A stretch of 64,000 nucleotides of DNA from Gammaproteobacteria bacterium (GTDB taxonomy: Bacteria > Pseudomonadota > Gammaproteobacteria > GCA-002705445 > GCA-002716945), in assembly GCA_018667355.1 (NCBI GenBank), contig JABIVC010000009.1, positions 18,665-82,664 of the forward strand. The letters are read 5' to 3'. Made by a program: the position numbers and the translations under genes. How positions within the stretch are numbered: the first letter of the stretch is position 1; each line of letters opens with the position of its first letter. The notes below the pieces were generated by a model. It had not been told where the DNA came from. It did not search any database and saw nothing but the letters and a program-made list of their open reading frames with translations. This document shows, piece after piece, positions 41,173-60,770 of the stretch.

Positions 41173-42500
41173 AAATAACTATTATAGGGTGCGGTTATGT
41201 TGGGCTAGTGACTGGGGCATGTATGTCAGATATTGGACATGATGTTCTTTGTCTTGATATTGATGCTGCAAAAATTAAAAAATTAAACAAAGGTGTTATA
41301 CCAATTTATGAAAAAGGCCTTGATAGCATCGTATCTTTCAATCTAAAGAAGAAGAGATTAAATTTTACCACATCATATAAAAAAGCTGTTACTCATTCTG
41401 ATATCATTTTTATTGCTGTGGATACGCCTTCTAAAAAGAATGGCGATGCAGACTTATCTAGTATAGTGAAAACTTCTCAAAGCATTTCACAACATATGTC
41501 TAGGGATAAAATTATCATTGAAAAATCCACTGTACCAGTTGGGACGTCAGATTATATTCAGACTATCATCATGAAAGGTCTTAAATTAAGAAATAAAAAA
41601 CTAAATATTTCAATGGTATCAAATCCAGAATTTCTTAAAGAAGGCTCTGCCGTGGATGATTTTATGAAACCAGACAGAATAATAATAGGTCTTGATAACC
41701 AAGAATTGCAGCATATTTTTAATGAAATGTATCTCCCATTTAATCGCAAGTATAATAAAATTCATTATATGGATGTTAAGTCAGCTGAGCTAACCAAGTA
41801 TGCTGCAAATGCAATGCTAGCGACAAAGATTAGTTTTATTAACGAAATTGCTATACTTTCAGATAAACTAGGTGTTGATATTGAAAGTATAAGAAAAGGT
41901 ATTGGTGCAGATAAAAGAATAGGCAAAGAATTTCTTTACCCTGGATGTGGTTACGGAGGATCTTGCTTCCCAAAAGATGTGAAGGCGCTGATATCTACCG
42001 CAAAGAAGATATCTGTTGAAACATCACTATTAAAATCAGTGCATCAAGTTAATGATGCTCAGAAGCAATACCTTGTAGAAAAAGTTAAGCATATATTTAA
42101 AAATAAAATTAAAGGTAAAAAATTTGCAATATGGGGCTTAGCATTTAAACCAAATACAGATGATGTACGTGATGCTCCAAGCATTACTATTATCAAATCT
42201 CTTCTTAATGGAGGCGCTCATGTCATTGCTTATGATCCAATAGCATCTCTGGCAGAAATTATTAACTCTAGCCGCTACAATGAAGTATCTACTGCAATCT
42301 CTGCTCTACATGATGTAGATGCGTTAATTATATGCACTGAATGGAAAGAGTTCTGGTCAATAAATACTGATATATTCATTGATAATATGAAAAAACCTAT
42401 TATATTTGATGGTCGTAACATATTTTCACCAGAAAAGATGATGCGAAATTCCATTGAGTACTATGGTGTTGGGAGAGGTTTAAGCCTTTCAAAAAAATAG
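41169..42500 (+). CDS. ugd: UDP-glucose 6-dehydrogenase
   Basis: G-x-GYVG, EKSTVPVG, NPEFLKEG, GYGGSCFPKD and LAFKPNTDD. Confidence 0.95.
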   Translation: MKITIIGCGYVGLVTGACMSDIGHDVLCLDIDAAKIKKLNKGVIPIYEKGLDSIVSFNLKKKRLNFTTSYKKAVTHSDIIFIAVDTPSKKNGDADLSSIVKTSQSISQHMSRDKIIIEKSTVPVGTSDYIQTIIMKGLKLRNKKLNISMVSNPEFLKEGSAVDDFMKPDRIIIGLDNQELQHIFNEMYLPFNRKYNKIHYMDVKSAELTKYAANAMLATKISFINEIAILSDKLGVDIESIRKGIGADKRIGKEFLYPGCGYGGSCFPKDVKALISTAKKISVETSLLKSVHQVNDAQKQYLVEKVKHIFKNKIKGKKFAIWGLAFKPNTDDVRDAPSITIIKSLLNGGAHVIAYDPIASLAEIINSSRYNEVSTAISALHDVDALIICTEWKEFWSINTDIFIDNMKKPIIFDGRNIFSPEKMMRNSIEYYGVGRGLSLSKK

Positions 42501-42516
42501 CTAAGACCATTATAAT
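42488..42516 (+). promoter_or_regulatory. Putative promoter of rfaH and the glycan operon
   Basis: TTCAAA (42488-42493), 17-nt spacer, TATAAT (42511-42516). Confidence 0.5.
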
Positions 42517-42530
42517 ACGCTGATATTCTC

Positions 42531-42549
42531 ATGTTCATGCCGTGAACAT
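42531..42549. promoter_or_regulatory. Palindrome copy 1, putative operator
   Basis: ATGTTCA-tgccg-TGAACAT. Confidence 0.7.
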
Positions 42550-42586
42550 AAATACCTTGATTTTTGCCTATCATTAAGTTAATTTT

Positions 42587-42609
42587 ATATGTTCATGGGG
42601 TGAACATAT
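42587..42609. promoter_or_regulatory. Palindrome copy 2, putative operator overlapping the rfaH RBS
   Basis: ATATGTTCA-tgggg-TGAACATAT; its 19-bp core is 17/19 identical to copy 1. Confidence 0.7.
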
Positions 42610-42610
42610 T

Positions 42611-43105
42611 GTGTGGATATTAGCTAAAACTAAGTGTAGACAAGAGGTGAGAGCAGAAAAAAACCTTAATAATCAGGGATTTAAATGCTTTTTGCCAACT
42701 ATTAATGTAAAAAAATTTATTAATAATGTCTGGACTGAAAAGAAAGAGGTCATGTTTTCGGGGTATTTATTTATAAATATAGCTAATCTAGCCCACAAAA
42801 TGCATAAAATTAATAATACATATGGTATTTCTAAATTATTAATCGATAAAGGCACAGGTTCTCCATATATAATCAATAATAGCTTAATCGAAGAAGTATC
42901 AGAAGAAGCGTCAAGAGCAAGTGATCGAGATAGTATAGAAAACGGAGATGCTGTAGTTATAACCAATGGTAAACTATCAACTTTTTCGGGTATTTTCCTG
43001 GAAAAATGTAGTAAATACAGAGCAAAATTATTAGTAACTTTTTTGAATAGTGAACAAGAACTAGTGGTAGATATTTCAGATATACAAAAAGTATATTTGA
43101 ATTAG
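42611..43105 (+). CDS. rfaH: RfaH-like NusG paralog (antitermination factor)
   Basis: W-x-x-x-x-TK-x-RQE-x-RA-x-x-NL-x-x-QG, F-x-GYLF, INNTYGI and KOW-like GDAVVITNG; GTG start. Confidence 0.88.
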   Translation: MWILAKTKCRQEVRAEKNLNNQGFKCFLPTINVKKFINNVWTEKKEVMFSGYLFINIANLAHKMHKINNTYGISKLLIDKGTGSPYIINNSLIEEVSEEASRASDRDSIENGDAVVITNGKLSTFSGIFLEKCSKYRAKLLVTFLNSEQELVVDISDIQKVYLN

Positions 43106-43123: not shown

Positions 43124-43161
43124 CTGATAGACATGTTTATGACTATTAGTGCGGTAGCCTG
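43124..43161 (+). promoter_or_regulatory. JUMPstart/ops-like element
   Basis: Hairpin CTGATAG...CTATTAG followed by GCGGTAGCCTG (ops consensus GGCGGTAGnnTG), ending 13 nt before the GT2 ATG. Confidence 0.7.
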
Positions 43162-43174
43162 TCTAAATAAAAAA

Positions 43175-44092
43175 ATGAGTATATCAGTTATCATTCCTTA
43201 TTATAATGAATCAGAAACTATCCTAAAAACGCTTAGGTCTATAGCATGTCAAAGTTATACACCTGATGAAGTATTACTAATTGATTCCGGTTCAACAGAT
43301 AAGACTTCATTATTAATAGATGAATGGATCAAGACCAATAAAATGAACCAATATAGAAATATATACTCTGGAATGATGTCACCTAGCTCATCTATAAATA
43401 AAGGCATTAAGAATTCAAAAAATAAACTTATAGCATATATGGATTGTGGTCTTGAAATACCCAAGAATTGGTTAATGAGTAATTATAAATTATTAAATAA
43501 AGCTGAGAGTGATATAGTGTCTACAGTCATTTATACAGCTGGAAAAAGTATTATTGATCAATCATTTATATCTCAGACTTATGGATATCAAAATAAAACA
43601 GTATGTCTTCCTGGGTCTTTAATTAATAAAAAAGTATTTAACAAAATAGGATATTTAATTGAATCAGTCAGAGCTGGTTATGATATAGATTTTGTAAATA
43701 AACTCAAAAAGTCAAATATTAAAAGAGTAGTGAATAGAGATATAGCTCTAAAATATTATAATTTTAATTATTGCCAAACATTTTTATCAGGATTTAAAAA
43801 AGTATATTCATATTCTCTTTCTGGATGGAAAACAAAAGGTGATATTAAGCCAGCAATATATATATCAATGTTTTTTTTATTTTTAATTTCAATGTATTTA
43901 GAGTCTTATTACTTATTAATACTATATCTATTAACTAGAGGTTTTATGATTCCATTTTATAAATCAAATTATAATATATTAATGTTATTACCACATAGAG
44001 TTATATTTAACTGTATTACTGGAATGATAATTGAAATATCAAGAGTAATAGCATATTCAAATATATTTAGAATGAAGAGTAGTGAGGGATAA
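43175..44092 (+). CDS. Glycosyltransferase family 2
   Basis: [17 protein letters not shown] and YMDCG. Start moved to ATG 43175. Confidence 0.9.
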
Positions 44093-44099: not shown

Positions 44100-44468
44100 A
44101 TGTCAAAAAAAGAAAATATTGATAATGATTTAAAGGTAATTAGATATTTGCATGATAGGCAAAATACTAATCAACGAGAAATGTCAGAATCATTAAATAT
44201 TAGCCTCGGAAAAGTAAACTATATTTTGAAAGCTTTGATGGAGAAAGGTATAATCAAGGCTAGAAATTTTAAAAGCAATAAGAATAAGCGTGCATATATG
44301 TACTTTTTGACACCTAAAGGTATTGAAGAAAAAGCAAAGCTAACACTCAGCTTTTTTGACAGAAAAAGTCAAGAATATGATAGACTCAAGAAAGAACTTA
44401 TAGAATTAAAAAAAGATATGGAAGACACTGCGGTAAATAACTCAAATAAAGGTAAAGAGAATGACTGA
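44100..44468 (+). CDS. EPS-associated MarR-family transcriptional regulator
   Basis: QRE[23 protein letters not shown], NF[21 protein letters not shown] and EYD-x-LK match the TIGR04176-type pattern. Confidence 0.9.
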
Positions 44469-45501
44469 TGAGATAAATTTAGATAATTTTTTAAAAAAAA
44501 TAGTTGAGAGCAAGAATATTTTATTAGGTATTATAATTATTAGTTTTGTGTCCTCTATATTTATTGCCCTATCTAAAACTGAAACATTTAAAGCAGATGC
44601 ATACCTAATACCTCCAGAAAGTAGATATATTCAACCATTAAATGTTTTTTTATCGGATGGATATAGATTGGATAGAAGTTCGTTTACCAGAGGAGATGTC
44701 TATAGAACATTTGTCCTCAACATGCAATCAAGAAAATTCCAAAGAAGATTTTTCTTTGAAAAAGAAATATATAAAAATTATGAGGAAACCAATCTTGAGA
44801 AGTCATTCGAAGTTAATTTTTATAACAATATGAGATTTTCTTTAGACTCTAAAATTACTGATAGAAGTAATAGGCAAGAACAGTTTCTAAAGGTTAGTTT
44901 TATTGGTTTAAATCCTGAATTATCTGCTAAATGGCTAAATGATTATATTCAAATGGTCAATATCATAACATCCCAGGATTTTGTCGATGGTGTAAATGTT
45001 TTGATTTCAAATACTAAAAATACATTATCCTCAGAAATTAATAGCAAAAAAAATCTAGCTGAACAGATAAAGCAAGACAGAATAGTTTTACTAGAAGAAG
45101 CTTTTTCTATTGCCGAAGATCTTAACATCATTGATAGAGAAAAGAGTTTGTCTAATCAACAAAATGTCATCTTAAGTAAAGATGAAAATATAAGTTCAAA
45201 ATCTCCGCTCTATTTATTAGGTACTAAAGCAATAAGATCAGAGATTAATACATTAAAGAATCGTAATAACTCAGAATCATTCATCCCTGGGTTCAGACAA
45301 CTTCAAGAGAAGGCCAAAGCATTAGATTCAATAAAGGTAGATGCTGTGAATGTAAGATCAGCTCAAATTGACCAAAAAGCTATCACACCTATTTCACGGT
45401 ATGAACCCAAAAGAAAGCTTATAGTTTTATTAGGATTAATCACAGGATTCTTTATATCTTTCTTATATGTTCTCGCGATGTTTATTATTTCTAGAAAATA
45501 A
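44461..45501 (+). CDS. wzz: Chain-length determinant Wzz/FepE
   Basis: Two terminal TM helices, a coiled periplasmic region, and P-x-x-x-x-x-PKRKLI-x-x-LG-x-x-x-G. Confidence 0.9.
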
Positions 45502-45583
45502 TTCATATTATTAAAATACTTCAGATAACATCGTAATTAGCATCACATATTATATTATACTGAATAAAGTCTAAATTCTTGCA

Positions 45584-46930
45584 ATGACTACTTATAACAT
45601 CAACTACTATAATATTCTTAAACTCACCTTATTGTTTTTATTCATAGGGGTTTTTTTAAAAGCTATATCAAAGCCACCGGCTGTACTTATTGAGTTAGTG
45701 CTCATTCTGAGTCTATTAGGCATATCACTAATATACTTATTTGAGAAGTTTCAGATAAATTCACTTCATACTATTGTTCTATACATATTTTTTCTTTACT
45801 TGATAGGACATTTTTTAGTCGCAACTATTATGAGGCCTGATGAGTTAAATTTACCTTTTTATAAAGTTTTACAATATAACTTGCTTGAGTTTAGACTCTC
45901 ATCACTGGGTTATTTCTTGCCACTTATATTTATACCATTGAGTAAGTTTAATACTGAAAAATTTGAAAAATATCTGATTGTATTAATCAAGTTTTCAGTA
46001 ATATACACATTACTTGAACAGTTTATCTCCTTAATAGGATTTCGTTATATTTTTGAAATTGCATATTCAAATACAAGCGTTGTTACTTCTAATTTAGTAG
46101 GAGTTAAAACTCTTGGGTTGTATAGAATATGGGGCTTAATGGGTGCACCACAATTATTAGGTGTATTTCATGTAATAACTTTATTCTATTTTATGGAAAA
46201 AGGAATGAAAGGGTGGTCAATTGCCAGTATATTTGCTGTGATTGCTAGTACTTCCAAGACTGCCTATGTAATTCTTATATTGCTTGGTTTTTTATATTTA
46301 CTCTATAAAAGAAAATATTTTATATTTATATTATTATCAGGGTTTGGTATTTTTGCCATTATCGCTTCTTTCGCTACTTATTTTTATTTAATTAGAGATG
46401 GTATATACACTGACGAGTATCCGAAATTTATACAATTTGTTGGTTCAGTTCACGGTTATTATCTACTTTTGGATCAAGTAAGGTATATAAAAGAAAATGA
46501 AGATGGCACTGGAATGCAAGATTTCTTTAGCCAAGGAGGAATCTTAACCACTTTAGCAACTTATTATCATAACAATCCACTGGATATTTATCTTGGGAAG
46601 GGTATGTCTTATTCTATATTCAAGTATAGTGGTGGAAGCAGTACAGATCCTCTGTTTGCATACAAATACTTAACATCTGAATATTATATCCTGACATATT
46701 TCAATCAATATGGTATTTTAGGTCTTGCGCTTTTCTTGTATTTATTCTTGGTTTACCCTGTGTATAAAATTTTAAAAGGTTGCGAGATATACTACTTCAT
46801 TCCTGTTGCATTCTTTTTAGCAACATTACATTATCCGCCACAAATACCAAAATTAATGATGGTCTTGGTTGGCTATGCTATGTGGAAAATTTATATTGGT
46901 TATATTAGGGAAGAACGTGATGCTAAATAA
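45584..46930 (+). CDS. wzy: Putative O-antigen polymerase Wzy
   Basis: About 10-12 hydrophobic segments with a large periplasmic loop; directly follows wzz. Confidence 0.65.
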   Translation: MTTYNINYYNILKLTLLFLFIGVFLKAISKPPAVLIELVLILSLLGISLIYLFEKFQINSLHTIVLYIFFLYLIGHFLVATIMRPDELNLPFYKVLQYNLLEFRLSSLGYFLPLIFIPLSKFNTEKFEKYLIVLIKFSVIYTLLEQFISLIGFRYIFEIAYSNTSVVTSNLVGVKTLGLYRIWGLMGAPQLLGVFHVITLFYFMEKGMKGWSIASIFAVIASTSKTAYVILILLGFLYLLYKRKYFIFILLSGFGIFAIIASFATYFYLIRDGIYTDEYPKFIQFVGSVHGYYLLLDQVRYIKENEDGTGMQDFFSQGGILTTLATYYHNNPLDIYLGKGMSYSIFKYSGGSSTDPLFAYKYLTSEYYILTYFNQYGILGLALFLYLFLVYPVYKILKGCEIYYFIPVAFFLATLHYPPQIPKLMMVLVGYAMWKIYIGYIREERDAK

Positions 46931-47609
46931 AAAGCCTACAGTTATCATATTATGTGGTGGCAAGGGAATGAGATTAAGGCCTATAACTAATGATTTACCA
47001 AAACCATTAATCCCGATATCTGGAAAACCTGTTTTACATTATATAATTAATCAATGTATGAAATATGATTTAGATAAATTTGTTATTGCAACTGGATATA
47101 AGTCTAAAAAAATCAGTGAGTTCATAGATAGTAATTTTAGAGACTTAGATTGCGCATTAGTTGACTCTGGTGATTCTGATATAATTAATAGGATAAGGGA
47201 TTGTCTTGATCTTATTGATGATGACTTTATCTTATGCTACGGGGACACAATTTCAGATATTAATTTAAATAATTTACAAGAATATCATAAACTACAGTCA
47301 AATATTTCTACAGTGACATCTTTTCCAATCTTAATTCCATTCGGAGTAATGAGTCTTGATGATGATAATTATGTAAAAAGTTTCATAGAGAAGCCAGTAT
47401 TAAAAGACGTAATGAATATTGGTTATTTTTACTTTTCCAAGGTACATCACAATCTCTTTTTTAAACACAACAGCTTCATTGAAGTATTAGATGATTTATG
47501 TAATCAAAAAGAACTAAAGTGCTACAATCATGCTGGTATACATATAACAATAAACACAATTCAGGAACTTGAATATGCAAACGCAAACATCAGCAAAATA
47601 CTTAAATAA
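46920..47609 (+). CDS. Sugar-phosphate nucleotidyltransferase (RfbF/DdhA-like)
   Basis: ILCGGKG-x-RL, PKPL and F-x-L-x-YGD. Start moved to ATG 46920. Confidence 0.85.
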   Translation: MLNKKPTVIILCGGKGMRLRPITNDLPKPLIPISGKPVLHYIINQCMKYDLDKFVIATGYKSKKISEFIDSNFRDLDCALVDSGDSDIINRIRDCLDLIDDDFILCYGDTISDINLNNLQEYHKLQSNISTVTSFPILIPFGVMSLDDDNYVKSFIEKPVLKDVMNIGYFYFSKVHHNLFFKHNSFIEVLDDLCNQKELKCYNHAGIHITINTIQELEYANANISKILK

Positions 47610-48642
47610 GAGTTTTTGGAAAAATAAAAATGTGCTAGTAACCGGAATCAACGGTTTTATTGGTGGTAACTTAGCAAAAGTCTTATTAAGCCTAGGGGCA
47701 ACTGTAATTGGTATCACAAACAAAAACTATAAAAATAAATTTCTTATATTTGAAAAAATTCATAACAAATTAAATTTTCATAAAGTAGATATTAAAAATT
47801 ATTCTGCTCTAGAAAAGGTAGTGAACCTCTATAGTATCGATATGTGTATACACTTAGCTGCACAAGTGGATGTTAATATCGCTAAAACTAATCCTTATGA
47901 AACATTTGAGGCCAATATCAAAGGAACATATAACCTTTTAGAAATTTTGAGAAAAAAAGGAAACATCAAATCAATAGTGATTGCTTCTTCTGACAAAGCA
48001 TATGGCGAATATAAAGTATCAGATTTGCCATATAAAGAAGATTATGACTTAAGACCTTTGTACCCATATGATGTATCAAAGGCCGCAGCAGATATGATTG
48101 CTAAATCATATGCATCGGATTTATTCTCATTACCAGTTATAACAACAAGATTTGCAAATATATATGGACCAGGACAACTTAACTTTACCGCCCTTATACC
48201 TGATTGTATATTAGCTAACCAAGGCAATAGAAAATTTATACCACGTGGAGATGGTACTAATCAAAGAGATTTCTTATATGTAGATGATGTTTGTGATTTA
48301 TATCTATGCCTCTCTTACAATCTCTATAATAATACAAAATATAAAGGTGAAATTTATAATGCTGGTACAGGGCATGGATATACAGTCAGAGAGATAGTCG
48401 AAAATATTTGTCAATTATATGATAACAGCAAGCTATTTAACCAAATTGATAAAAAATTTGTTAATAAAAAACTATCAGGAGAAATTCAACATCAGTTTAT
48501 GACATATGATAAGCTTTACAAAACATTTAAATGGCAACCAAAACATAATATAAAAGATGGGCTCATAGAAACTATAAGATGGTATGATAAATTCTTGAAA
48601 AGATATTCATACAAAAGTTTTACGGATTTAAATAAAAGATGA
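47575..48642 (+). CDS. NDP-hexose 4,6-dehydratase-like extended SDR (RfbG-like)
   Basis: FWKNKNVLVTG-x-x-GFIG, SSDKAYG and YDVSK. The start is uncertain. Confidence 0.8.
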   Translation: MQTQTSAKYLNKSFWKNKNVLVTGINGFIGGNLAKVLLSLGATVIGITNKNYKNKFLIFEKIHNKLNFHKVDIKNYSALEKVVNLYSIDMCIHLAAQVDVNIAKTNPYETFEANIKGTYNLLEILRKKGNIKSIVIASSDKAYGEYKVSDLPYKEDYDLRPLYPYDVSKAAADMIAKSYASDLFSLPVITTRFANIYGPGQLNFTALIPDCILANQGNRKFIPRGDGTNQRDFLYVDDVCDLYLCLSYNLYNNTKYKGEIYNAGTGHGYTVREIVENICQLYDNSKLFNQIDKKFVNKKLSGEIQHQFMTYDKLYKTFKWQPKHNIKDGLIETIRWYDKFLKRYSYKSFTDLNKR

Positions 48643-49784
48643 AAAGAATTTTAATATTAGGTGCTGATGGTTATCTTGGCTGGGCATCAACAGTTGCATT
48701 ACATCAAGATGGACATAAGTTGACAATAGTTGATAATTATTCAAAACGTAAATATATGAAGGAACTAAATCGTGATCCTCTCGTAACCTTACCAAAACTG
48801 AAGACTAGACTTACATCAATTAATAAGACAAGACATAAAATAAATATCTATGATAAAGATTGTACAAATTATGTAGAATTAAAAGCTATAATAAAAAAAC
48901 ATAAGCCAGAAGTTATCATTCATTTTGCAGAATTACCATCTGCTCCATTCTCAATGCTAAATAATATATATGGATGGAAAACATTGCAGAATAACATTCA
49001 AAGTACTTTTAATGTTGCTCATATTATAAAAGAGATAAATCCTGATTGTCATATTATTAAACTTGGTACCATGGGTGAATATGGAACTCCTAATATTGAT
49101 ATTGAGGAAGGATGGCTGAAAGTTAATCACAATGGCAGGAATGATAAGTTTCTCTATCCAAGGCAAGCATCTAGCCTATATCATACATCAAAAATTATGG
49201 ATACAGATTTGCTTTGGTTTTATACAAGGATGAACAATTTAAGGGTTACTGATTTAATGCAAGGACCTGTATATGGTTTATGCGTTAATTCAGCTAATGA
49301 GAAACCCATGGAATCTACTTTTACATATGATGATATATTTGGAACTGTATTAAATAGATTTATTGTCCAGGCTGTTGCAGGGATACCCTTGACAGTTTAT
49401 GGTTCTGGAAATCAGATAAGAGGTTATATCAATATTGCTGATACAATTGATTGTATACGATTAACATTAGCAAATACTCCTCATAGTGGGAAATTAAATA
49501 TTTACAACCAATTTACTCAGCAGTTTTCTGTTAATGAATTAGCAAAGTTAGTTAAAGTCTCACTTAATGAAATAGGTATTAATACTAAAATTACTAAAAT
49601 CTCTAATCCTAGAATTGAAAAAGAGAAACATTATTATAATGCAAAGCATACAAATATTAATAAAATTGGGTTGAAACCAACACTCTTGGATTCGGAAGTC
49701 ATTATAGATATTGCTAAATATGTGTTGAAGCATAAATCTAAAATTAATAAAAAAATAATAAATCCAAAGGTTAAATGGAAATGA
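48639..49784 (+). CDS. sqdB: UDP-sulfoquinovose synthase-like protein (SqdB/SQD1/Agl3 family)
   Basis: G-x-DGYLGW, HFAE-x-x-SAPFSM, KLGTMGEYGTPNIDIEEG, P-x-QASS-x-YH-x-SK and FGT-x-LNRF-x-VQA-x-x-G-x-PLTVYG. Confidence 0.85.
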   Translation: MKRILILGADGYLGWASTVALHQDGHKLTIVDNYSKRKYMKELNRDPLVTLPKLKTRLTSINKTRHKINIYDKDCTNYVELKAIIKKHKPEVIIHFAELPSAPFSMLNNIYGWKTLQNNIQSTFNVAHIIKEINPDCHIIKLGTMGEYGTPNIDIEEGWLKVNHNGRNDKFLYPRQASSLYHTSKIMDTDLLWFYTRMNNLRVTDLMQGPVYGLCVNSANEKPMESTFTYDDIFGTVLNRFIVQAVAGIPLTVYGSGNQIRGYINIADTIDCIRLTLANTPHSGKLNIYNQFTQQFSVNELAKLVKVSLNEIGINTKITKISNPRIEKEKHYYNAKHTNINKIGLKPTLLDSEVIIDIAKYVLKHKSKINKKIINPKVKWK

Positions 49785-50764
49785 AGATTTTGATAACAGG
49801 TGGACTTGGCTTTATAGGGTCAAATCTTGTAGCTTATCTTCTTAAAAAAAAGAAAATATCACAGATATTAATAGTAGATAATTTAAGTAAATCCTCCGTA
49901 AAATATCTAGAATCTATAACTAAATTTAAATTCTTTAATAACATTAAAGACTATAAAAAATCTAAATCTAGAGTTGTTGTTGTCAAGGCTAATGTTATTG
50001 ATTTTAAAATAGCCAATATCCTTACAAAAAATATTGATAGCATAGTTCACTTAGCAGCTGAATCTGGTATAGACATATCTATATCAAATCCTAGAGAATC
50101 TTTTGAAACAAATGTAATTGGAACATTTAACTATTTGGAATCAGCAAGATTAAATAATGTTAAGTCTTTTATATTTGCCTCAAGTGGATCAGTATTTGGT
50201 GATGTTAAGCCACCAATGATAGAGAGTTACCCAAGAATACCTATTGCTCCATACGGATCAAGCAAGCTATCTATTGAATCTTATTGTGAGACATATTCAA
50301 AAGTATTTAATATCAAAACAACTATACTCAGATTTAGTAATGCATATGGCTTATATTCTAGTCATAAAAAAAGTGTTGTAGCGAATTTTATCAAATCAAT
50401 ATTAGATAATCAGCCAATAATTATTAATGGCGATGGCAAGCATACACGTGACTATGTTTTTGCTGAAGATTTAGTTGATGCCATTTATAAGTCAATATTT
50501 AAAAAAGATAAAAATAATATTTTTCATATTTCAACAGGAATAGAAACTACAACTAATAAACTTTTAAGTATATTAAAAAAAATATCCTATAAGTATAAAT
50601 TAAATATCCCTAATATAAAGAATATTTCTAGCAGAGTAGGCGATATGAGATTTAATAGTCTATCCACTAAACATACTGAAAAGAATCTTAGGTGGAAACA
50701 TAAAATATCTATTGATAATGGAGTAGAGCGCACTTTAAAATGGTTTCTAAAGTCATATAATTAA
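49781..50764 (+). CDS. NAD-dependent epimerase/dehydratase (GalE-like)
   Basis: ITGG-x-GFIG, HLAA, ASSGSVFG, PYGSSK, RFSNAYG and TRDYV. Confidence 0.88.
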   Translation: MKILITGGLGFIGSNLVAYLLKKKKISQILIVDNLSKSSVKYLESITKFKFFNNIKDYKKSKSRVVVVKANVIDFKIANILTKNIDSIVHLAAESGIDISISNPRESFETNVIGTFNYLESARLNNVKSFIFASSGSVFGDVKPPMIESYPRIPIAPYGSSKLSIESYCETYSKVFNIKTTILRFSNAYGLYSSHKKSVVANFIKSILDNQPIIINGDGKHTRDYVFAEDLVDAIYKSIFKKDKNNIFHISTGIETTTNKLLSILKKISYKYKLNIPNIKNISSRVGDMRFNSLSTKHTEKNLRWKHKISIDNGVERTLKWFLKSYN

Positions 50765-50776
50765 TTAAATTACTGA

Positions 50777-51886
50777 ATGAAATATACCTTCATGCTCCCT
50801 AGAAAAACTGATCTTATTATTTTTGATAATAATGAGTATGAAATGCTATTGAGTACTGTAATACCTCGAGAATACACAGCGCAATTAATGGATAGTAGCA
50901 TATCTTGCATCTACCTAAATCCTATATTTTTATTTGTATATATTATAACAGTAATCAAGAATCTATTGACGGGTTCTAAAGTAAAGTCAGCTCTTTATAA
51001 ATCATATCTATTATGCATTTTAAAATTTATTAAACCAAAAGTTGTCATTACATTTACAGATAATAGTTTAGTTTATCATTGGCTAGTAAAATATTATAAA
51101 AAAGCAAGATTTATCGCTATACAAAATGGTGTGAGACAGCCGTATCAATTTAAAATAATTAAGTCATCAACGGATATTATGATAAATCATGATATTTTTT
51201 ACTGCTTTGGGCGCTATGATGTAAAAAGACATGGAGAAATGGGTTTTACCATAAATACCCCTATACCAATTGGTTCTTTGAGGTTATCTAATTTTAATGA
51301 CTTAAATAGAAAAATAACTCCTGAATATGATATATGTTTAGTTTCAAAATATGGAAAAACTAATCCTCTAAAAAAACCATTAATAGATGAGTTTATATAT
51401 AATTCAAATAGACTAGATTTAGATGTTGCCAAGCTTGCTAAAAACAAAAAACTTAAAGTAGTTATTGCTTTAAGAGGATCGCCCAAAGAGGAAGCTTATT
51501 ATCGTAAGATTTTTGGAGATTATGCAACATATGTAGAGAATAAAGATAGCGAGAGTAGCTACAGAGCATGTTTTTCAAGCGAGTTAATAATTTCTTATCA
51601 ATCATCGATGCTCATTGAAATGTTAGCAAGCAAGAAAAAGGTCTTGCATGTTGATTACACCTCTAATAAAGATATTTTTGGGTATGAGGGTGCTATTAGA
51701 TTAGATTATGTTGATTATTCAAATTTTGAACACCATGTTATCAATCTTTTATCCATTGATTACAAGATTTATGAAAAACTTGTGAAAGATGATCAGATTA
51801 AATTTATGAACCATAGTAGTAGTAACCCACCAAATGTCATAATAAAAAATCATATTGACAAATTAATGAGGAGCTCTATTGTATAA
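50777..51886 (+). CDS. Uncharacterised glycan-biosynthesis protein, possibly a GT-B-like transferase
   Basis: KPKVVITFTDN, IAIQNGVR, YCFG and SSMLIEML...KKV. Position inside the locus supports a glycan role; family not firmly identified. Confidence 0.5.
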   Translation: MKYTFMLPRKTDLIIFDNNEYEMLLSTVIPREYTAQLMDSSISCIYLNPIFLFVYIITVIKNLLTGSKVKSALYKSYLLCILKFIKPKVVITFTDNSLVYHWLVKYYKKARFIAIQNGVRQPYQFKIIKSSTDIMINHDIFYCFGRYDVKRHGEMGFTINTPIPIGSLRLSNFNDLNRKITPEYDICLVSKYGKTNPLKKPLIDEFIYNSNRLDLDVAKLAKNKKLKVVIALRGSPKEEAYYRKIFGDYATYVENKDSESSYRACFSSELIISYQSSMLIEMLASKKKVLHVDYTSNKDIFGYEGAIRLDYVDYSNFEHHVINLLSIDYKIYEKLVKDDQIKFMNHSSSNPPNVIIKNHIDKLMRSSIV

Positions 51887-53642
51887 ATTACTTAAAAAAT
51901 CTTTCTTATTTTTTGATAGTACTGATAAAAAAAGCTTGACTATATTATTGTTTTTATATGTATTAGTAGGCTTAATTGAAATATTTGGAATAGCTTCTAT
52001 AGTTCCCTTTGTTGGCCTTCTTACTGACCCAGAATATTTTAATAATAATGAATATGTCATGGTATTTAAAAACTATTTCTCTCTACAAAGCAATGAGCTT
52101 CTTATGGTTTCAGGTTTCATACTTATAGGTATATTTGTTTTAAGCAATATACTAAATGCTTTAGTATTATGGAAAACTCTTGAGTTTGGAACAAATCATA
52201 GTTATAAGACGTCACTCATAATTCTAGAAAAATATTTAAAACAACCATATAAATTTTTTGTTAATGCGGATATTTCATCACTTAAGAAAAATATCCTTGA
52301 TGAATCTATTCGCTTAGCTGAATCAATATTTCTACCAATGTTACACATACTATCAAGAGTTATTCTTTTGACTTTCATTAGTATATTATTAATTTCGGTA
52401 AATACACAAGCTTTCATATATTCATTACTAATTATTGGAATAATGTATTTACTTATCTTTGTTGTCATAAAAAATATGCTTAAAAAATATGGAGATATAA
52501 GGCTTTCCGCTAATGATAAAAGGTTCAAAACCGTAAATGATTGTTTAAATAGTATCAAAGATATTAAATTTTATAATGCTGAGAAAAAGTATCTAACAAG
52601 TTATTCACAGTCGTCAAATATTTTTTTATGGCTCACAGCAAAAAAAACATTAATCTCAACACTGCCTAGATATTTTATTGAAATAATTGCGTTTGGTGGG
52701 TTCTTTTCAATAATTCTATATTTAACTTATGGTAGCAATGATATATCTACTTCTTTACCTACAATCGCTTTATTTATACTTGCTGCTTATAGGATACTTC
52801 CATCTATGCAACAAATATTTGCTTACTCAAGTTCAATTAAATTTCACATACCCGCATTAGATCTTATTTCAAAAGTAATCAAACTATCCGATAATGCATC
52901 GACTGGAATTGAACCTATAGATTCAAGAGAAGAAGTAATTATTTTTGATAATGTATCTTTCTCGTATGATTCTAATAAAACAATATTGAATAATGTCTCA
53001 TTTAAATTAAATAATCCTGGCATTACTGCAATTATTGGGTCAACCGGGGCAGGGAAGACAACTTTAATTGATTTGTTGCTTGGACTTTATAAACCTACAA
53101 CGGGATTAATTAAGATTCGAAAACTATTATCAGCGCATAGTCTAGATAAAGAAATTAGTTATGTGCCACAAAATATTTCGTTTGTTGATGATAGTATTAT
53201 TAATAATATAGCATTTGGTATTGATGAAAGCTTGATTGATAACGGTAGGGTTACAGATTCATTAAAGGCTGTAAAACTCGATCATCACATAAGTACTTTG
53301 CCCGATGGACTCTTGTCAGAAATAGGTGAAAATGGTGTTAAGTTTAGTGGTGGCCAGTTACAGAGACTTGGGATAGCAAGGGCACTATATTTCAATCCAC
53401 AGATTTTAGTTCTAGATGAGGCTACAAATGCTTTAGATATAAAAACAGAGGAAGAAATCTTGTTATCTTTGAAAAATAACAATCCTAATCTAATAATAAT
53501 ACTTATTACTCATAGAACTTCAGCTCTCAAGTTATCTGACAATATATTACATTTATCCAAAGGCAGCCTGAAGATGATGGATATCAATAATAAAGATTTA
53601 TCAATAGAGAAGCTATTAAAAGATACAGTTTATAATAATTGA
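51879..53642 (+). CDS. ABC transporter, fused TMD-NBD (PglK/MsbA-like flippase)
   Basis: Six TM segments, Walker A GSTGAGKTT, signature FSGGQ and Walker B LVLDEAT; TTG start. Confidence 0.9.
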   Translation: MYKLLKKSFLFFDSTDKKSLTILLFLYVLVGLIEIFGIASIVPFVGLLTDPEYFNNNEYVMVFKNYFSLQSNELLMVSGFILIGIFVLSNILNALVLWKTLEFGTNHSYKTSLIILEKYLKQPYKFFVNADISSLKKNILDESIRLAESIFLPMLHILSRVILLTFISILLISVNTQAFIYSLLIIGIMYLLIFVVIKNMLKKYGDIRLSANDKRFKTVNDCLNSIKDIKFYNAEKKYLTSYSQSSNIFLWLTAKKTLISTLPRYFIEIIAFGGFFSIILYLTYGSNDISTSLPTIALFILAAYRILPSMQQIFAYSSSIKFHIPALDLISKVIKLSDNASTGIEPIDSREEVIIFDNVSFSYDSNKTILNNVSFKLNNPGITAIIGSTGAGKTTLIDLLLGLYKPTTGLIKIRKLLSAHSLDKEISYVPQNISFVDDSIINNIAFGIDESLIDNGRVTDSLKAVKLDHHISTLPDGLLSEIGENGVKFSGGQLQRLGIARALYFNPQILVLDEATNALDIKTEEEILLSLKNNNPNLIIILITHRTSALKLSDNILHLSKGSLKMMDINNKDLSIEKLLKDTVYNN

Positions 53643-53652
53643 GAAAAATAAT

Positions 53653-54657
53653 ATGAAAAATAAAAAAATACTTATAACAGGTGCAGATGGATTCATAGGA
53701 TCACACCTAACTGAAAAGCTCATACGAATGGGTTGTGATGTTAGAGCTATGTGTTTATATAACTCGTTTAATTCCTGGGGATGGCTTGATAGCATTAATA
53801 AAAAATTATTAGATAAAGCCGATGTTGTCTTGGGTGATGTCCGCGATATCAAATCTGTTAAAAAAGCATGTAAAAATATAGATTATGTTTTCCATCTTGC
53901 ATCATTAATAGCAATACCTCACTCTTATAACTCGCCATATTCTTATTTGCATACTAACGCTGAAGGTACGATGAATATTCTTGAGGCATGTACTGATACT
54001 AATGTTACAAAAATTATTCATACGTCAACAAGTGAGGTATATGGTGATATAAAGAAGATGCCTATATCTGAATCCGACAAAATATTTGCTAAGTCTCCAT
54101 ATTCAGCAACTAAAATTGCTGCAGATCAGATTGCTGAATCATATTACAGTTCTTTTGGTTTACCCGTAACTATAGTAAGACCTTTTAATACTTATGGTCC
54201 AAGACAATCAAATAGAGCCATAATACCAACTATTATCAGTCAAATATTAGATGGTAAAAAAAAGATTAAACTTGGATCACTGTATCCAACTAGAGATTTC
54301 TCATATATTGATGATACAGTAAATGGATTTATATCAGCTGCAATATCAAAAAATAGTATAGGTGAAACTTTTAATATCGGTGCAGGCTATGAAATATCCA
54401 TAGGTGATTTATTTAATGTGATAAATAAACTATGCGGAAGTAATGCTAAAATAAAAACTGACAGTGTACGTATTAGACCAAAATCAGGTGAAGTATATAG
54501 GTTGAAAGCTGATAATAAAAAAGCAAAAAAGATAATTAAGTGGGAACCTAAATATTCTGGTAAGTCAGGACTCATAAGGGGTCTTAAAAATACTATTGAG
54601 TGGTTTAGCAAGGAAGAAAACCTCTGTAAGTATAAAACTGATCATTATATTACTTAA
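53653..54657 (+). CDS. legB: NDP-GlcNAc 4,6-dehydratase LegB
   Basis: TGADGFIGSHL, YNSFNSWGWLD, LIAIPHSY, SPYSATK and RPFNTYGPRQS. Confidence 0.9.
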   Translation: MKNKKILITGADGFIGSHLTEKLIRMGCDVRAMCLYNSFNSWGWLDSINKKLLDKADVVLGDVRDIKSVKKACKNIDYVFHLASLIAIPHSYNSPYSYLHTNAEGTMNILEACTDTNVTKIIHTSTSEVYGDIKKMPISESDKIFAKSPYSATKIAADQIAESYYSSFGLPVTIVRPFNTYGPRQSNRAIIPTIISQILDGKKKIKLGSLYPTRDFSYIDDTVNGFISAAISKNSIGETFNIGAGYEISIGDLFNVINKLCGSNAKIKTDSVRIRPKSGEVYRLKADNKKAKKIIKWEPKYSGKSGLIRGLKNTIEWFSKEENLCKYKTDHYIT

Positions 54658-54658
54658 A

Positions 54659-55807
54659 ATGTACGATAGTATAATTAAAAAAATTAGAAAATGTTTGCCT
54701 ACAAATGTAAAAAAATATGCAGTCCATGAGCCCTCTTTCCCTAAAAAAGTGCTTAGGGAAATAGAAAAATGTATAGACTCAAGTTATGTGTCAACATCAG
54801 GAGAATATTTAGATAAATTCACCAGAGAATTACAGGAGATAACTAATTCTAAATATGTTGTGTTAACATCTAGTGGTACAGCGGCGCTATTCTGTGCGCT
54901 AGAAGAAATTAATATTTCTGGATGTGAAGTGATTATGCCTTCAATGACATTTGTTGCTACTCCAAACGCTGTTATACATGCTAGTGGAATTCCAAATTTT
55001 ATTGATAATAGTAAATACTCTCTAAATATAAATGCTGAAATCCTAGATAAATATTTAAATGAGAATACTATGCAAGTGAAGGGTAGCTGCATTAATAAAA
55101 AATCAATGAGACGTATACGATGTATTATTGTAGTGCATGCATATGGTACAGCAGCTAATGTTACCAATATTTGCAAGGTTGCAAAAAAACATAAAATAGA
55201 AGTTTTGGAAGACGCTGCTGGTGCACTTGGCTCATATGAATATAACAAACATGTCGGGACTATATCACGCATGGGTGCCTTAAGCTTTAATGGAAATAAA
55301 ATCATAACTACAGGAATGGGTGGAGCATTGCTTCTTAAAAGCAAAAAAGACTATGAACGAATATCTCATAAAATAAGTACTGCTAGACTTAAACATGAAT
55401 GGAAAGTAGAGCATGATATGGTTGGATATAATCTTCGAATGGCTAATATAAATGCTACTTTAGGTTATTGTCAAATCACTGATTTCAAAAAAACATTAAA
55501 GATAAAAAGAAAATTATACAATGATTATCGTGAAATCTTTTATAATGATAAATATTGTTATATTAAAGATGAAGAGCCGAATACTACCAATAATAACTGG
55601 GTAACTAATTTATATCTAAGAGATAGTTTTAAAGATAAACATCAAATCTTAATCAAAAGACTGCATAAAAGTAATATTTTGGCACGAGAATTATGGAAAC
55701 CTATGCATTTACTTCCAATGTTTAAGAGTATGCCTCGAACACGTATGAAAAATTCAATAAATAATTGGAAAACAGGGCTCAGTTTACCTAGCAGTTATTA
55801 TAAATGA
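54659..55807 (+). CDS. legC: LegC-family PLP aminotransferase (DegT/DnrJ)
   Basis: HEP, TFVAT-x-NA, EDAAGALGS, SFNGNKIITTG-x-GG and GYNLRM. Start moved to ATG 54659. Confidence 0.88.
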   Translation: MYDSIIKKIRKCLPTNVKKYAVHEPSFPKKVLREIEKCIDSSYVSTSGEYLDKFTRELQEITNSKYVVLTSSGTAALFCALEEINISGCEVIMPSMTFVATPNAVIHASGIPNFIDNSKYSLNINAEILDKYLNENTMQVKGSCINKKSMRRIRCIIVVHAYGTAANVTNICKVAKKHKIEVLEDAAGALGSYEYNKHVGTISRMGALSFNGNKIITTGMGGALLLKSKKDYERISHKISTARLKHEWKVEHDMVGYNLRMANINATLGYCQITDFKKTLKIKRKLYNDYREIFYNDKYCYIKDEEPNTTNNNWVTNLYLRDSFKDKHQILIKRLHKSNILARELWKPMHLLPMFKSMPRTRMKNSINNWKTGLSLPSSYYK

Positions 55808-56949
55808 TTAAAAAAAGAACAATATGCGTCCTTTCTTCTAGTAGAGCAGATTATAATCATCTATATTTACTTATGAAGAGCTTAAAAGAATCACAAATAT
55901 TTGATTTTAAGCTTTTGGTGACAGGGATGCATCTTTTAAAAAAATATGGAGATACATACTCTGAATTAGTTAAAGATGGTTTTAAAATTGATGGTTTCAT
56001 AAAAAATTCTAGTCTGAATAATAATCATAATCAAATTTTAAATTTAATGTCTGATCAGTTATCAAATGCAGGCAAGCAGTTAGATAAAATTAATCCAGAT
56101 ATTTTGGTTATCTTAGGTGATAGATATGATGTATTACCGATAGCAATCGCATCTCATATAAAGGGAATTGCTATTGCACATTTTCATGGTGGTGAAGTTA
56201 CTCATGGAGCTATAGATGATGCAATTAGACATGCAATTACTAAATTCTCTGATATACATTTCGTAAGTAATAAAGAATTTAAGAAAAGAGTGCAACAATT
56301 AGGTGAAAATACAAAAAATGTTCATAATATTGGTTCGTTAGGTGTACAGGCTATTAAATTAACACCAATAATTTCAAAACAAGAAATTCAAGAGCATTTT
56401 GATATTCATGGAGATTATATTTTAATTGCTATTCATCCAGAAACAATCAATGCTGATAATATCAGAATGATTAAATCACTATTCGATGTCTTATCTAAAG
56501 ATATATCTCATCAAATTATATTCACTAGCCCTAATTCGGATCCTGGAAATGAAATAATAATTAAAAATATTAAATCTTTTTTAAAAGATCACCCGAAGAA
56601 AGCAAAGTTTATTGTTTCAGCTGGTAGAGAACTTTTCATTAACTTAATGAGACACTGCAATTTCATTATTGGTAATTCATCATCTTGCGTTATAGAGGCG
56701 CCAGCTCTAGGTATCAAATCTATATTAATTGGTGATAGACAATCAGGTCGACCAATATCATCAAGTGTCAGTCAATCATCTTTTAGTCGTAAATCTATAA
56801 GTAGTCAGATAAAAATAACAGAAAACTTAAGAAAGACTAGTGCTAAAAAGATTCATTATAAAGGTTCAAATACAATTCCAAAAATATTAAAAATACTCGA
56901 AACTGTACCTTTGAAAGAAATAAAATTAAAGAAGTTTAAAGATATATAA
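55804..56949 (+). CDS. legG: Hydrolysing NDP-diacetamido-sugar 2-epimerase (LegG/NeuC)
   Basis: SRADY, GDRYD, HFHGGE, D-x-x-IRHAITK, IHPET and GNSSS. Confidence 0.88.
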   Translation: MIKKRTICVLSSSRADYNHLYLLMKSLKESQIFDFKLLVTGMHLLKKYGDTYSELVKDGFKIDGFIKNSSLNNNHNQILNLMSDQLSNAGKQLDKINPDILVILGDRYDVLPIAIASHIKGIAIAHFHGGEVTHGAIDDAIRHAITKFSDIHFVSNKEFKKRVQQLGENTKNVHNIGSLGVQAIKLTPIISKQEIQEHFDIHGDYILIAIHPETINADNIRMIKSLFDVLSKDISHQIIFTSPNSDPGNEIIIKNIKSFLKDHPKKAKFIVSAGRELFINLMRHCNFIIGNSSSCVIEAPALGIKSILIGDRQSGRPISSSVSQSSFSRKSISSQIKITENLRKTSAKKIHYKGSNTIPKILKILETVPLKEIKLKKFKDI

Positions 56950-58065
56950 ATGACAAAGATTAATAAAAGACCGATTCACATAATTGCTGAAATAGGAGTA
57001 AACCATAATGGAAAACTATCTTTGGCAAAAAAACTGATTAAAGAAGCAAAAAAATCTGGGGCAAACTCTGTTAAATTTCAGACCTTTAATACTGATGAGA
57101 TTATTAAAAGAAATACCTCAAAAGCTAAGTATCAAATCAAGAACACAAATAATAAGGAATCGCAATACGATATGTTGAAGAGATATGAATTAAGTAATGA
57201 AGATTATAAAGCTCTAATAGTTTATTCAAAAAAAGTTGATATTGAATTCTTTTCTACAGCATGTGATATCGATAGTCTTACATACTTATGTAAAAAATTA
57301 AAACTAAAAACAATAAAAATATCGTCGACAGATTTAACAAATATACCTTTACTTTTAAAAGCTGGGGCTACGAGAAAGAAAATTATCATTTCATCTGGAA
57401 TGGCGGATATATATGAAATTGATATAGCCTTGTCAGCCTTATCATATGGTTATGCCCATGCAGACAATTTAGATATTTCTAAATTTAAGCTTATAAAACA
57501 TAAAAAATATTATTTAAAGAACAAACAATATCTTTCAAGGAAAGTTACTTTATTGCATTGTACGACAGAATACCCGGCACCTCTAGATGAACTAAATTTA
57601 AATGTCATAACAGATTTTCAGTCAAGATATCCAACATCAATAGGTTATTCTGATCATTCAAATAATCTCTTAACACCAATTGTGGTAACAGCAAAAAACA
57701 TCACCATGATTGAAGTCCATGTAACATTGAATACAACAATGGATGGCCCTGATCATAAATGCTCTTTAGACATGAAAAAATTTTCTGAGTATGTTGATAA
57801 TATAAGAAAAACTGAGATGATGCTTGGTTCACCTAATAAAGCTCCTACAAAATCTGAAATTCAAAATATTAAAACAGTAAGAAAGAGTCTTGTATTAAAT
57901 AAGTCAATTGTAAAAGGAGAAAAAATTACAGTAGATAACCTAGCAGTTAAAAGACCAGGAAACGGAATACCATCAATACACTATACTGATTATATAAATG
58001 TTGTATCTAAAAAAATATTAAACAAAAATCATTTTCTTAAAAAAGAAGATGTAAAAAAGAAGTAA
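56950..58065 (+). CDS. legI: Nonulosonic acid synthase (LegI/NeuB)
   Basis: IAEIGVNHNG, KFQTF, LLHCTTEYP, GYSDHS, EVHVTL, GPDH and C-terminal SAF domain (KRPG-x-GI). Confidence 0.9.
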   Translation: MTKINKRPIHIIAEIGVNHNGKLSLAKKLIKEAKKSGANSVKFQTFNTDEIIKRNTSKAKYQIKNTNNKESQYDMLKRYELSNEDYKALIVYSKKVDIEFFSTACDIDSLTYLCKKLKLKTIKISSTDLTNIPLLLKAGATRKKIIISSGMADIYEIDIALSALSYGYAHADNLDISKFKLIKHKKYYLKNKQYLSRKVTLLHCTTEYPAPLDELNLNVITDFQSRYPTSIGYSDHSNNLLTPIVVTAKNITMIEVHVTLNTTMDGPDHKCSLDMKKFSEYVDNIRKTEMMLGSPNKAPTKSEIQNIKTVRKSLVLNKSIVKGEKITVDNLAVKRPGNGIPSIHYTDYINVVSKKILNKNHFLKKEDVKKK

Positions 58066-60078: not shown

Positions 60079-60770
60079 ATGAGAAAACAGTAGCGTTTAT
60101 TTTTGCAAGATCAGGTTCCAAGGGAGTAAAAGATAAAAATATTCAATTAATTAACAATATACCTCTCATTGGATATTCAATAAATATTGCGAAGGATTCT
60201 AATCTATTTTCTGACATTGTAGTATCGACTGATTCACAAGAAATAGCTGATATAGCAAATTTATATGGAGCTAGTACACCTTTTAATAGACCGGCTGATT
60301 TGGCAACAGATGAGTCATCTGAGTGGTTATCTTGGCAGCATGCTGTTAAATCATATATGAATATAACTAAGTTTGATTACTTCTTTAGCTTACCAGTCAC
60401 ATCGCCATTAAGGAGTAAGAATGATATACTATCGATGAAGGATTATTTCATGGATAATAGTTTTGATATTGTTCTTGGTATGACAGAATCTCATAGGTCA
60501 CCGTATTTCAATATAGTGAATAAAAAAGATGATGGCTCTGTAGAGAGAGTTATTGATAGGGCGAATACTATTAGCAGAAGGCAAGATGCCCCAAAAACTT
60601 ATGATTTAACAACAACTGGATATATCACAACGCCAGACTATATTTTGAACAATAATAATTTGTTTGATGGTATTGTAGGTGGCTATGAAATACCTATGAA
60701 TAGAAGTTTAGATATTGATAGTGAATATGACTTAATGATTGCGCGAAAAATACTTGAAACTAATGAGTAA
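60075..60770 (+). CDS. legF: Acylneuraminate cytidylyltransferase (LegF/PtmB/ElaB-like)
   Basis: ARSGSKGV-x-x-KN, STDS, RP-x-x-LA-x-D, TSPLR, RRQDAP and DID. Confidence 0.9.
   Translation: MNEKTVAFIFARSGSKGVKDKNIQLINNIPLIGYSINIAKDSNLFSDIVVSTDSQEIADIANLYGASTPFNRPADLATDESSEWLSWQHAVKSYMNITKFDYFFSLPVTSPLRSKNDILSMKDYFMDNSFDIVLGMTESHRSPYFNIVNKKDDGSVERVIDRANTISRRQDAPKTYDLTTTGYITTPDYILNNNNLFDGIVGGYEIPMNRSLDIDSEYDLMIARKILETNE

Follow-up and report, generated by a model that had tools for sequence, protein, structure and literature searches.

Several autoregulated repressors of the MarR family, among them Escherichia coli MarR (with marO sites I and II), OhrR, MepR and SlyA, act through paired palindromic operators. 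A comparable arrangement is present in the DNA considered here, a stretch of 64,000 nucleotides from a Gammaproteobacteria bacterium (positions 18,665 to 82,664 of contig JABIVC010000009.1; the whole stretch is called the window), in which two copies of the palindrome ATGTTCA-N5-TGAACAT precede an rfaH-like gene and a regulator of the MarR_EPS family (TIGR04176) is encoded two genes further downstream. The comparative evidence given below makes it highly probable that the palindrome is the operator of MarR_EPS. As in the autoregulated MarR systems, the regulator is a small winged-helix protein, a palindrome of ~20 bp would lie over the promoter and start, there are two sites, and the gene of the regulator lies in the operon that it would control. 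Unlike MarR repressors, in which a dimerisation domain is formed from N- and C-terminal helices (~140-150 aa in all), MarR_EPS is a shorter protein for which one long C-terminal helix is predicted; moreover, the predicted binding would be to a glycan operon that is headed by an antiterminator gene.

The proposed second level of regulation at this locus also has precedents. As in the enterobacterial RfaH/ops system, where ops is part of JUMPstart, a NusG paralog that is closest to RfaH is found together with an ops element ahead of a long surface-glycan operon. However, the rfaH gene of E. coli is unlinked to its targets, whereas here the rfaH-like gene lies in cis, as the first gene and upstream of ops, and its product scores below the curated RfaH cutoffs. 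NusG paralogs that head their own polysaccharide or polyketide operons are known as Bacteroides UpxY and Bacillus LoaP. The present locus resembles these in that the antiterminator gene comes first in the cluster that it would serve, but UpxY and LoaP have a leader element before the gene, while here a canonical ops follows the gene and a dedicated winged-helix regulator with its own predicted operator would gate the promoter.

Auxiliary operators are also well known, such as lac O2 inside lacZ, lac O3 upstream, and the gal sites OE and OI. As in lac and gal, there is a candidate primary operator at the promoter and a second copy either upstream or, in related loci, hundreds of base pairs downstream inside the first coding region. 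In contrast to lac and gal, the spacing shows no conserved helical phasing, and nothing points to tetramers of MarR_EPS. Within the literature that could be searched, TIGR04176, the motif, RfaH with MarR and ops, and MarR with PEP-CTERM gave nothing relevant and no binding site for TIGR04176 regulators. A winged-helix repressor on a palindrome is an ordinary mechanism, and an autoregulated repressor of this type and an RfaH with ops are each of a known kind; what would be new is the assignment of an operator to the widespread TIGR04176 family and a cis-encoded rfaH that precedes the ops on which its product would act.

The palindromes and the MarR_EPS regulator

The elements on which the argument turns are the following.

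42531..42549, no strand assigned: distal (auxiliary) candidate operator ATGTTCA-TGCCG-TGAACAT, an exact match; its core GTTCA-N5-TGAAC is at 42533-42547, and this core ends 9 bp before the -35 hexamer described below.
42589..42607, no strand assigned: proximal (primary) candidate operator ATGTTCA-TGGGG-TGAACAT, with its core at 42591-42605 and an extended palindrome at 42587-42609; the core is invariant in relatives in which rfaH is likewise the first gene (rfaH-first relatives).
42611..43105, plus strand: rfaH-like NusG paralog of 164 aa with a GTG start, first gene of the glycan operon (Pfam NusG NGN domain, E 4e-15).
44100..44468, plus strand: MarR_EPS (TIGR04176) regulator, the proposed binder of the palindrome; the likely start is ATG 44100, and the open reading frame opens at GTG 44082.

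The initial annotation had described two cores that are 58 bp apart and differ at two central bases, and an exact-match scan confirmed this: the copies at 42531-42549 (spacer TGCCG) and 42589-42607 (spacer TGGGG) have starts 58 bp apart and are unlike at just two spacer bases. These are the only 2 exact matches in the 64-kb window, compared to 0.00 in 100 dinucleotide-preserving shuffles. Sites with one mismatch elsewhere in the window (45392 and 51717) are no more frequent than expected by chance. A chance origin of the palindromes was rejected, given the absence of exact matches in the shuffles and the extreme position of the motif among 1024 inverted repeats in independent loci.

Both copies lie within the 110-bp gap between ugd (UDP-glucose dehydrogenase, 41169-42500) and the NusG paralog (42611-43105). 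The distance of 1 nt that had been given between the second copy and the GTG holds for the extended 23-bp palindrome ATATGTTCA..TGAACATAT (42587-42609), but not for the 19-bp core, whose end is separated from the GTG at 42611 by 3 nt. The spacer of the proximal copy contains a GGGG (42597-42600) at a distance from the GTG that suits a ribosome-binding site.

Pfam and NCBIfam profile matches uphold the earlier calls of rfaH and of an EPS-type MarR gene downstream. The reading frame 44082-44468 passes TIGR04176 with 132.2 bits (cutoff 88) and matches PF01047 with 26.5 bits (cutoff 24.6); HTH_24 gives 45.7 bits, and matches to PadR are weak and sub-threshold. Homologs found with the protein carry just the generic name 'EPS-associated MarR family transcriptional regulator', and a PDB sequence search found no solved member of the family. 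In an AlphaFold model (mean pLDDT 82.8), the protein consists of three helices (including H2-H3 of the winged helix), a beta wing and, at the C-terminus, one helix of 49 residues. As a monomer model it matches small PadR-type chains over its full length, with TM-scores to the target of 0.70-0.79, whereas against canonical MarR structures only the winged helix of the monomer model is aligned, with TM-scores to the target of 0.43-0.49.

Small PadR-type regulators are dimeric, and the winged helix with one C-terminal helix of the MarR_EPS model is like that of LmrR, Rv3488 (5zi8), BC4206 (4esb) and a Listeria protein (6abq). Unlike these, the protein is placed by sequence models in MarR_EPS and MarR; furthermore, the PadR box is ATGT-N8-ACAT, the spacing of which differs from that of GTTCA-N5-TGAAC. 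Winged-helix dimers are expected to make contacts on successive major grooves of DNA. The half-site centres of the palindrome are 10 bp apart, which would fit a dimer bound in this way, and Y-GTTCA-N5-TGAAC-R is proposed as the recognised unit, with 5-bp half-sites one helical turn apart as expected for such a dimer.

Conservation in rfaH-first relatives

Relatives of the locus were recovered by protein-guided searches and come from marine gammaproteobacterial metagenome-assembled or single-cell genomes and from metagenome contigs; individual loci are cited as L plus a number. They share the gene order fhs, an O-antigen-ligase-like gene, ugd, the rfaH-like gene, a family-2 glycosyltransferase gene (GT2), marR and wzz, with marR present in every rfaH-first relative for which downstream DNA is available. 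RfaH identity across these relatives falls from 82% to 36-43%, and the beginning of the protein, MWI(L/V)AKTK, is conserved. The proximal core GTTCA-NGGGN-TGAAC is invariant throughout, within spacer DNA that has otherwise diverged, and the start codon follows it at 17-21 nt.

Most rfaH-first relatives also have a second copy, and in these auxiliary copies the spacer sequence is free. Its placement varies. It is found 58 bp upstream of the proximal copy in the window, L001/L004, L005 and L006, and 55 bp upstream in L012 and L065. In L002 (6062), L007 (3316), L008 (2486) and L009/L010 (3316) it is instead 336 bp downstream, within the rfaH coding region, where it encodes VHNMN in the variable interdomain linker; there it has been retained through synonymous changes in the spacer even as neighbouring codons diverged. 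In L003/L011 and L122 it lies ~560 bp downstream, just ahead of ops. Since the chance probability of a second GTTCA-N5-TGAAC in a 12-kb locus is near 0.01, three independent placements suggest that there is selection for a second site.

Three loci, L003 (6545), L122 (762) and L138 (5806), carry downstream of rfaH a second full unit of promoter-like sequence, operator and ops, positioned directly before marR or GT2.

The palindrome across MarR_EPS loci

In an unbiased test of the association, 80 loci from different species and many phyla were fetched solely by similarity to the MarR_EPS protein, and every inverted repeat of the form 5-mer, N5, reverse complement was counted (1024 possible). The other gene content of these loci varies widely between phyla. 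GTTCA-N5-TGAAC has 73 matches in 60 of the 80 loci, while the runner-up has 15 matches and the mean across all 1024 repeats is 1.27. The spacer length matters: N5 gives 73 matches, N4 gives 11 and N6 gives 3. The initial annotation had named a lack of co-occurrence between the motif and TIGR04176 members as grounds for giving up the idea; the motif in fact co-occurs with the family across phyla.

In 51 of the 80 loci, a site lies no more than 400 bp upstream of marR. The dyad symmetry extends past the core, as T-n-Y-GTTCA-N5-TGAAC-R-n-A. Typically, the site begins 0-7 nt after a -10 box like that of sigma-70 promoters and precedes marR, and the layout in the window matches this. A -35/-10 score of at least 9 out of 12 is reached directly upstream of 33% of sites, versus 3.5% of control windows, and several loci have the order promoter, site, ops, marR.

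A scan of a genome collection for the proximal variant, TATGTTCANGGGNTGAAC, gave 117 matches. Most of these are chance matches in unrelated genomes, but ~19 are in MarR_EPS or rfaH-like glycan loci and gave the first pointer to the association with MarR_EPS. The collection also yielded sites directly before MarR_EPS homologs in Gemmatimonadota, Alphaproteobacteria, Deltaproteobacteria and other Gammaproteobacteria.

One of the loci is from Leptospira interrogans (L145, NZ_FTNA01000004.1), in which GTTCA-N5-TGAAC occurs at 5827, ~170 bp ahead of the conserved domain, and a TTGACA-like hexamer comes after the site. The MarR gene at the start of rfb in this locus is a member of the MarR_EPS family, with 60% identity over the best segment. 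In published work, a MarR regulatory gene marks where the Leptospira rfb (O-antigen) locus begins (PMC10958091).

The rfaH-like gene and ops

Downstream of the rfaH-like gene, two further features are needed.

43150..43161, plus strand: ops element TGCGGTAGCCTG, for which the consensus is GGCGGTAGnnTG; it falls between the rfaH stop codon (43103-43105) and the likely GT2 start codon, ATG 43175.
43175..44092, plus strand: GT2, with a likely ATG at 43175; the mechanical open reading frame from TTG 43115 overruns ops (Pfam Glycos_transf_2, E 3e-21).

The RfaH-like protein falls below the curated RfaH cutoffs (TIGR01955, 102.5 bits versus 144.5; NF006534, 94.8 versus 124), yet RfaH is still its best-scoring family, and in a PDB sequence search the sole matches are to E. 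coli RfaH (E 3.5e-13). The element TGCGGTAGCCTG equals the ops consensus GGCGGTAGnnTG at 11 of 12 positions, and the pattern GCGGTAGCNTG occurs once in the window compared to 0.02 expected occurrences. An ops is present after the rfaH-like gene in all 20 of the rfaH-first relatives that were tabulated, as well as in several more distant rfaH-like loci. Because ops follows rfaH, RfaH would have a separate and conventional target ahead of GT2, marR, wzz and the genes after them, and the palindrome is not needed for it. Rfam, searched across the full window with gathering thresholds and across 42400-43300 with E values up to 5, gave only spurious matches to microRNA-type hairpins; JUMPstart was unmatched.

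A NusG paralog that heads its own operon might be expected to have a leader cis element, and the palindrome and an rfaH-like gene are found together in many loci. Thus, by analogy with the leader elements of LoaP and UpxY, the palindromes could be a loading signal for the RfaH-like protein, in the form of a hairpin in RNA or in the non-template strand. This is extremely unlikely. Each rfaH-first relative has a canonical ops after rfaH, and the distal copy is situated upstream of the conserved promoter. Furthermore, the site adjacent to marR is present in 46 of the 57 MarR_EPS loci that lack a NusG paralog within 6 kb; consequently, the palindrome goes with MarR rather than with RfaH. Conversely, L018 has an rfaH-like gene and ops but no palindrome or MarR match in the 4.2 kb examined. 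A role as an RfaH loading site was rejected given the presence of ops and the occurrence of the motif without NusG paralogs.

Variants of the candidate operator and the predicted recognition helix

Some MarR_EPS loci have altered palindromes. GTTCA-N4-TGAAC is found in four Rhodobacteraceae-type loci (L147, L194, L195 and L202), GCTCA-N4-TGAGC or a close variant in ~7 others of this type (L152, L167, L172, L193, L201, L206 and L212), and a hybrid palindrome, GTTCA-N4-TGAGC, in L196. The operator forms pair with motifs in helix 3, the predicted recognition helix, as follows.

Operator GTTCA-N5-TGAAC: helix 3 motif SLG[KR]xN[YF].
Operator GTTCA-N4-TGAAC: helix 3 motif SLG[AS]xNY.
Operator GCTCA-N4-TGAGC: helix 3 motif S[NVA]G[SG]xHY.

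Hence a change from Asn to His in the predicted recognition helix accompanies a change from T to C in the half-site; the motif in the window is SLGKVNY. Such co-variation of operator and helix is the pattern expected if MarR_EPS reads the palindrome.

Every gene of these glycan loci is somewhat associated with the motif, and one could therefore suppose that another, unlinked DNA-binding protein reads the palindrome and that the link to marR is indirect. This is very unlikely, since the changes in half-site and spacer track those in the MarR recognition helix. In addition, the loci were fetched by MarR similarity alone, with other gene content varying between phyla, and in most of them the site is at the promoter of marR itself.

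Many of the variant Rhodobacteraceae-type loci have ops immediately before marR, and in several a NusG paralog is present in divergent orientation.

The predicted promoter of rfaH

Three promoter elements in the gap between ugd and rfaH have to be considered.

42557..42562, plus strand: TTGATT, the -35 hexamer predicted for the conserved promoter of rfaH; a TTGA-type hexamer is kept in nearly all rfaH-first relatives.
42580..42585, plus strand: predicted -10 hexamer TAATTT, 17 bp after the -35 hexamer and 5 bp ahead of the G that opens the proximal GTTCA, identified by conservation and consensus.
42488..42516, plus strand: promoter-like match TTCAAA-17-TATAAT, named in the initial annotation (10/12 in a consensus scan), which overlaps the ugd stop codon (42498-42500).

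A TTGA hexamer that resembles a -35 box (mostly CTTGAT, in some cases TTGAAA or TTGTAA) is found in nearly all rfaH-first relatives, in spacer DNA that has otherwise diverged, and is followed at 16-18 bp by a TAnnnT hexamer that is conserved between the palindrome copies. This second hexamer is TA[AC]TTT at the identical position in L001, L002, L005, L006, L007 and L008, and TAnnnT in the other relatives. A conserved promoter, TTGATT-17-TAATTT (42557-42585), is thus predicted between the palindromes, with a predicted start site at ~42591-42594, within the left arm of the proximal copy. With the -35/-10 pair in this place, the predicted start would be covered by the proximal copy and the distal copy would be upstream of the -35 hexamer.

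This differs from the initial proposal of a promoter upstream of both copies. The TTCAAA-17-TATAAT match does exist, but no counterpart was found upstream of the distal copy in L001, L005, L006, L012 or L065; it is specific to the window and may be an additional promoter there. In L003, the entire gap between ugd and rfaH is 45 bp.

The position of the copies also bears on the direction of control. It is possible to suppose that MarR_EPS binds the palindrome but activates or counter-silences the operon, in the manner of SlyA or RovA. The distal copy is centred near -52, a compatible position; moreover, the DNA is very AT-rich (about 29-30% G+C in the window), and the promoter hexamers are weak, as is the case in promoters that depend on an activator. 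Activation is nevertheless rather unlikely, since the copy that is universally conserved is the one over the predicted start and early transcribed region, 0-7 nt after the -10 box, a typical position for a repressor, while the upstream copy is dispensable in many relatives. Repression by MarR_EPS is suggested by the position of the sites only.

DNA operator or RNA hairpin

The initial annotation had also raised the possibility that the proximal copy acts as RNA, by occluding the ribosome-binding site of rfaH. In favour of this being its main function, the 5-nt spacer contains the GGGG, the isolated proximal segment folds with -8.7 kcal/mol, and two A-to-G changes in the right flank of L001 would retain G-U pairs. 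In addition, RNA containing the whole palindrome could arise by read-through from ugd or from the upstream promoter that is specific to the window.

However, the pattern of conservation is not that of an RNA stem. Only 5 bp per arm are conserved, and these are invariant and never co-vary. At the first flanking position, a Y is preferred to the left and, independently, an R to the right, and the two pair in 38 of 70 sites versus 35.2 expected from composition. The flanks to the right of the core are unconserved among relatives. The folding energy is unexceptional (z = -1.8), with 13 of 200 shuffles folding equally well, and a transcript initiated at the predicted start could not form the hairpin, since its left arm would be missing. 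Furthermore, the motif is also found upstream of the -35 hexamer, within a coding region and throughout the family; a ribosome-binding site in the spacer is confined to the rfaH-first clade, and elsewhere the spacers vary and the start codon is 26-300 nt away.

A main function as an RNA hairpin is consequently quite unlikely. As a selected feature, the hairpin was rejected on the lack of co-variation and the unexceptional folding energy, and the occlusion that had been suggested finds no support in the comparisons, with flank pairing at the level of chance, an invariant core of 5 bp and a transcript from the conserved promoter without the left arm. The evidence points instead to a palindrome that would be read as double-stranded DNA by a dimer. 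There may be a minor RNA effect on transcripts that read through from ugd.

When both copies are on one RNA (42517-42625, 109 nt) they pair with each other, with -39 kcal/mol and z = -7. This larger hairpin was rejected as a selected feature, since it is a trivial outcome of two copies of a palindrome and many relatives have no distal copy.

A proposed regulatory circuit

Taken together, these results lead to a model in which the palindromes are MarR_EPS operators at the rfaH promoter, RfaH acts through ops on the operon that bears marR, and the whole forms a negative feedback. In this model, a MarR_EPS dimer on the proximal copy would cover the predicted start of transcription as well as the rfaH ribosome-binding site and block initiation, and the distal copy, just upstream of the -35 hexamer, would add occupancy. 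When MarR_EPS leaves, the promoter would fire, and rfaH would be transcribed and translated first. Polymerase would then cross ops (43150-43161), where RfaH would load and from which it would carry transcription through the glycan cluster of >20 kb, marR included. MarR_EPS would thereby feed back negatively on the promoter whose output RfaH amplifies. In this scheme the physical binding, repression as the direction of control, the position of the start, transcription of the cluster as one unit and any ligand are inferred. The central idea, that a MarR operator is located at rfaH and that RfaH acts on the operon encoding MarR, had been part of the initial annotation, and it has gained comparative support, including the ops between rfaH and GT2-marR-wzz. 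From the sequence comparisons, the model as a whole is judged probable, if somewhat less so than the narrower claim that the palindrome is the MarR_EPS operator.

Several points weigh against this model. First, 29 of the 80 MarR_EPS loci have no exact N5 site adjoining marR; ~12 of these have N4 or GCTCA variants, in ~9 marR lies downstream of a site-bearing rfaH-like gene, and the rest are unaccounted for. Second, the co-variation of operator and helix amounts to two clade-level events only, for which shared ancestry is a confounder. Third, the promoter hexamers in the window are weak, agreeing with the consensus at 7 of 12 positions (7.5 with a spacer bonus), and their support is conservation only. 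Fourth, no terminator was found in the ugd-rfaH gap of the window, so there may be read-through from ugd into rfaH. Fifth, the distances between copies, 58, 55, 56, 41, 25-29, 336 and 561 bp, show no helical phasing, and cooperative looping is therefore not indicated. Finally, some MarR/SlyA-type proteins activate rather than repress.

The model may be extended to a more general, and at present doubtful, hypothesis. In this, the MarR_EPS promoter-operator unit, ops and RfaH would constitute a portable, two-tier cassette that heads O-antigen and exopolysaccharide loci in bacteria of many phyla, including Leptospira rfb; the long C-terminal helix would bridge the primary operator to auxiliary operators that are variably placed (upstream, inside rfaH or before ops), and release would be brought about by an intermediate of the glycan pathway. 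If this were true, the locus would adjust its own expression to such an intermediate.

TIGR04176 regulators head surface-polysaccharide loci in many phyla. A predicted operator, together with a predicted specificity residue (in helix 3, Asn versus His), opens the regulation of these loci to direct testing, and the predicted operator allows promoters of glycan operons to be located in uncultured genomes. The locus also suggests a recurrent circuit, in which a repressor at the level of the promoter is combined with control of processivity by RfaH and ops.

The glycan cluster and other features of the window

The remainder of the cluster can be summarised as a single entry.

44461..63656, plus strand: rest of the glycan cluster, with a Wzz-like chain-length protein, sugar-nucleotide enzymes, an ABC exporter and nonulosonic-acid genes (NeuB and others), from the list of open reading frames, Pfam and NCBIfam.

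After the Wzz-like protein there are ~20 further glycan-synthesis genes on the same strand. Because the genes are tightly packed on one strand, the cluster would appear to be one transcription unit. Two open reading frames, 45584-46930 (448 aa) and 50777-51886 (369 aa), have no Pfam match, and the first of these also has no NCBIfam match.

The ABC exporter is encoded at 51879-53642. The genes at 54596-59087, for a DegT aminotransferase, a UDP-GlcNAc 2-epimerase, NeuB and a CBS-domain nucleotidyltransferase, are typical of nonulosonic-acid synthesis. Elsewhere in the window are a tmRNA gene (16149-16495, minus strand) and a group of three tRNA genes (36789-37105, plus strand).

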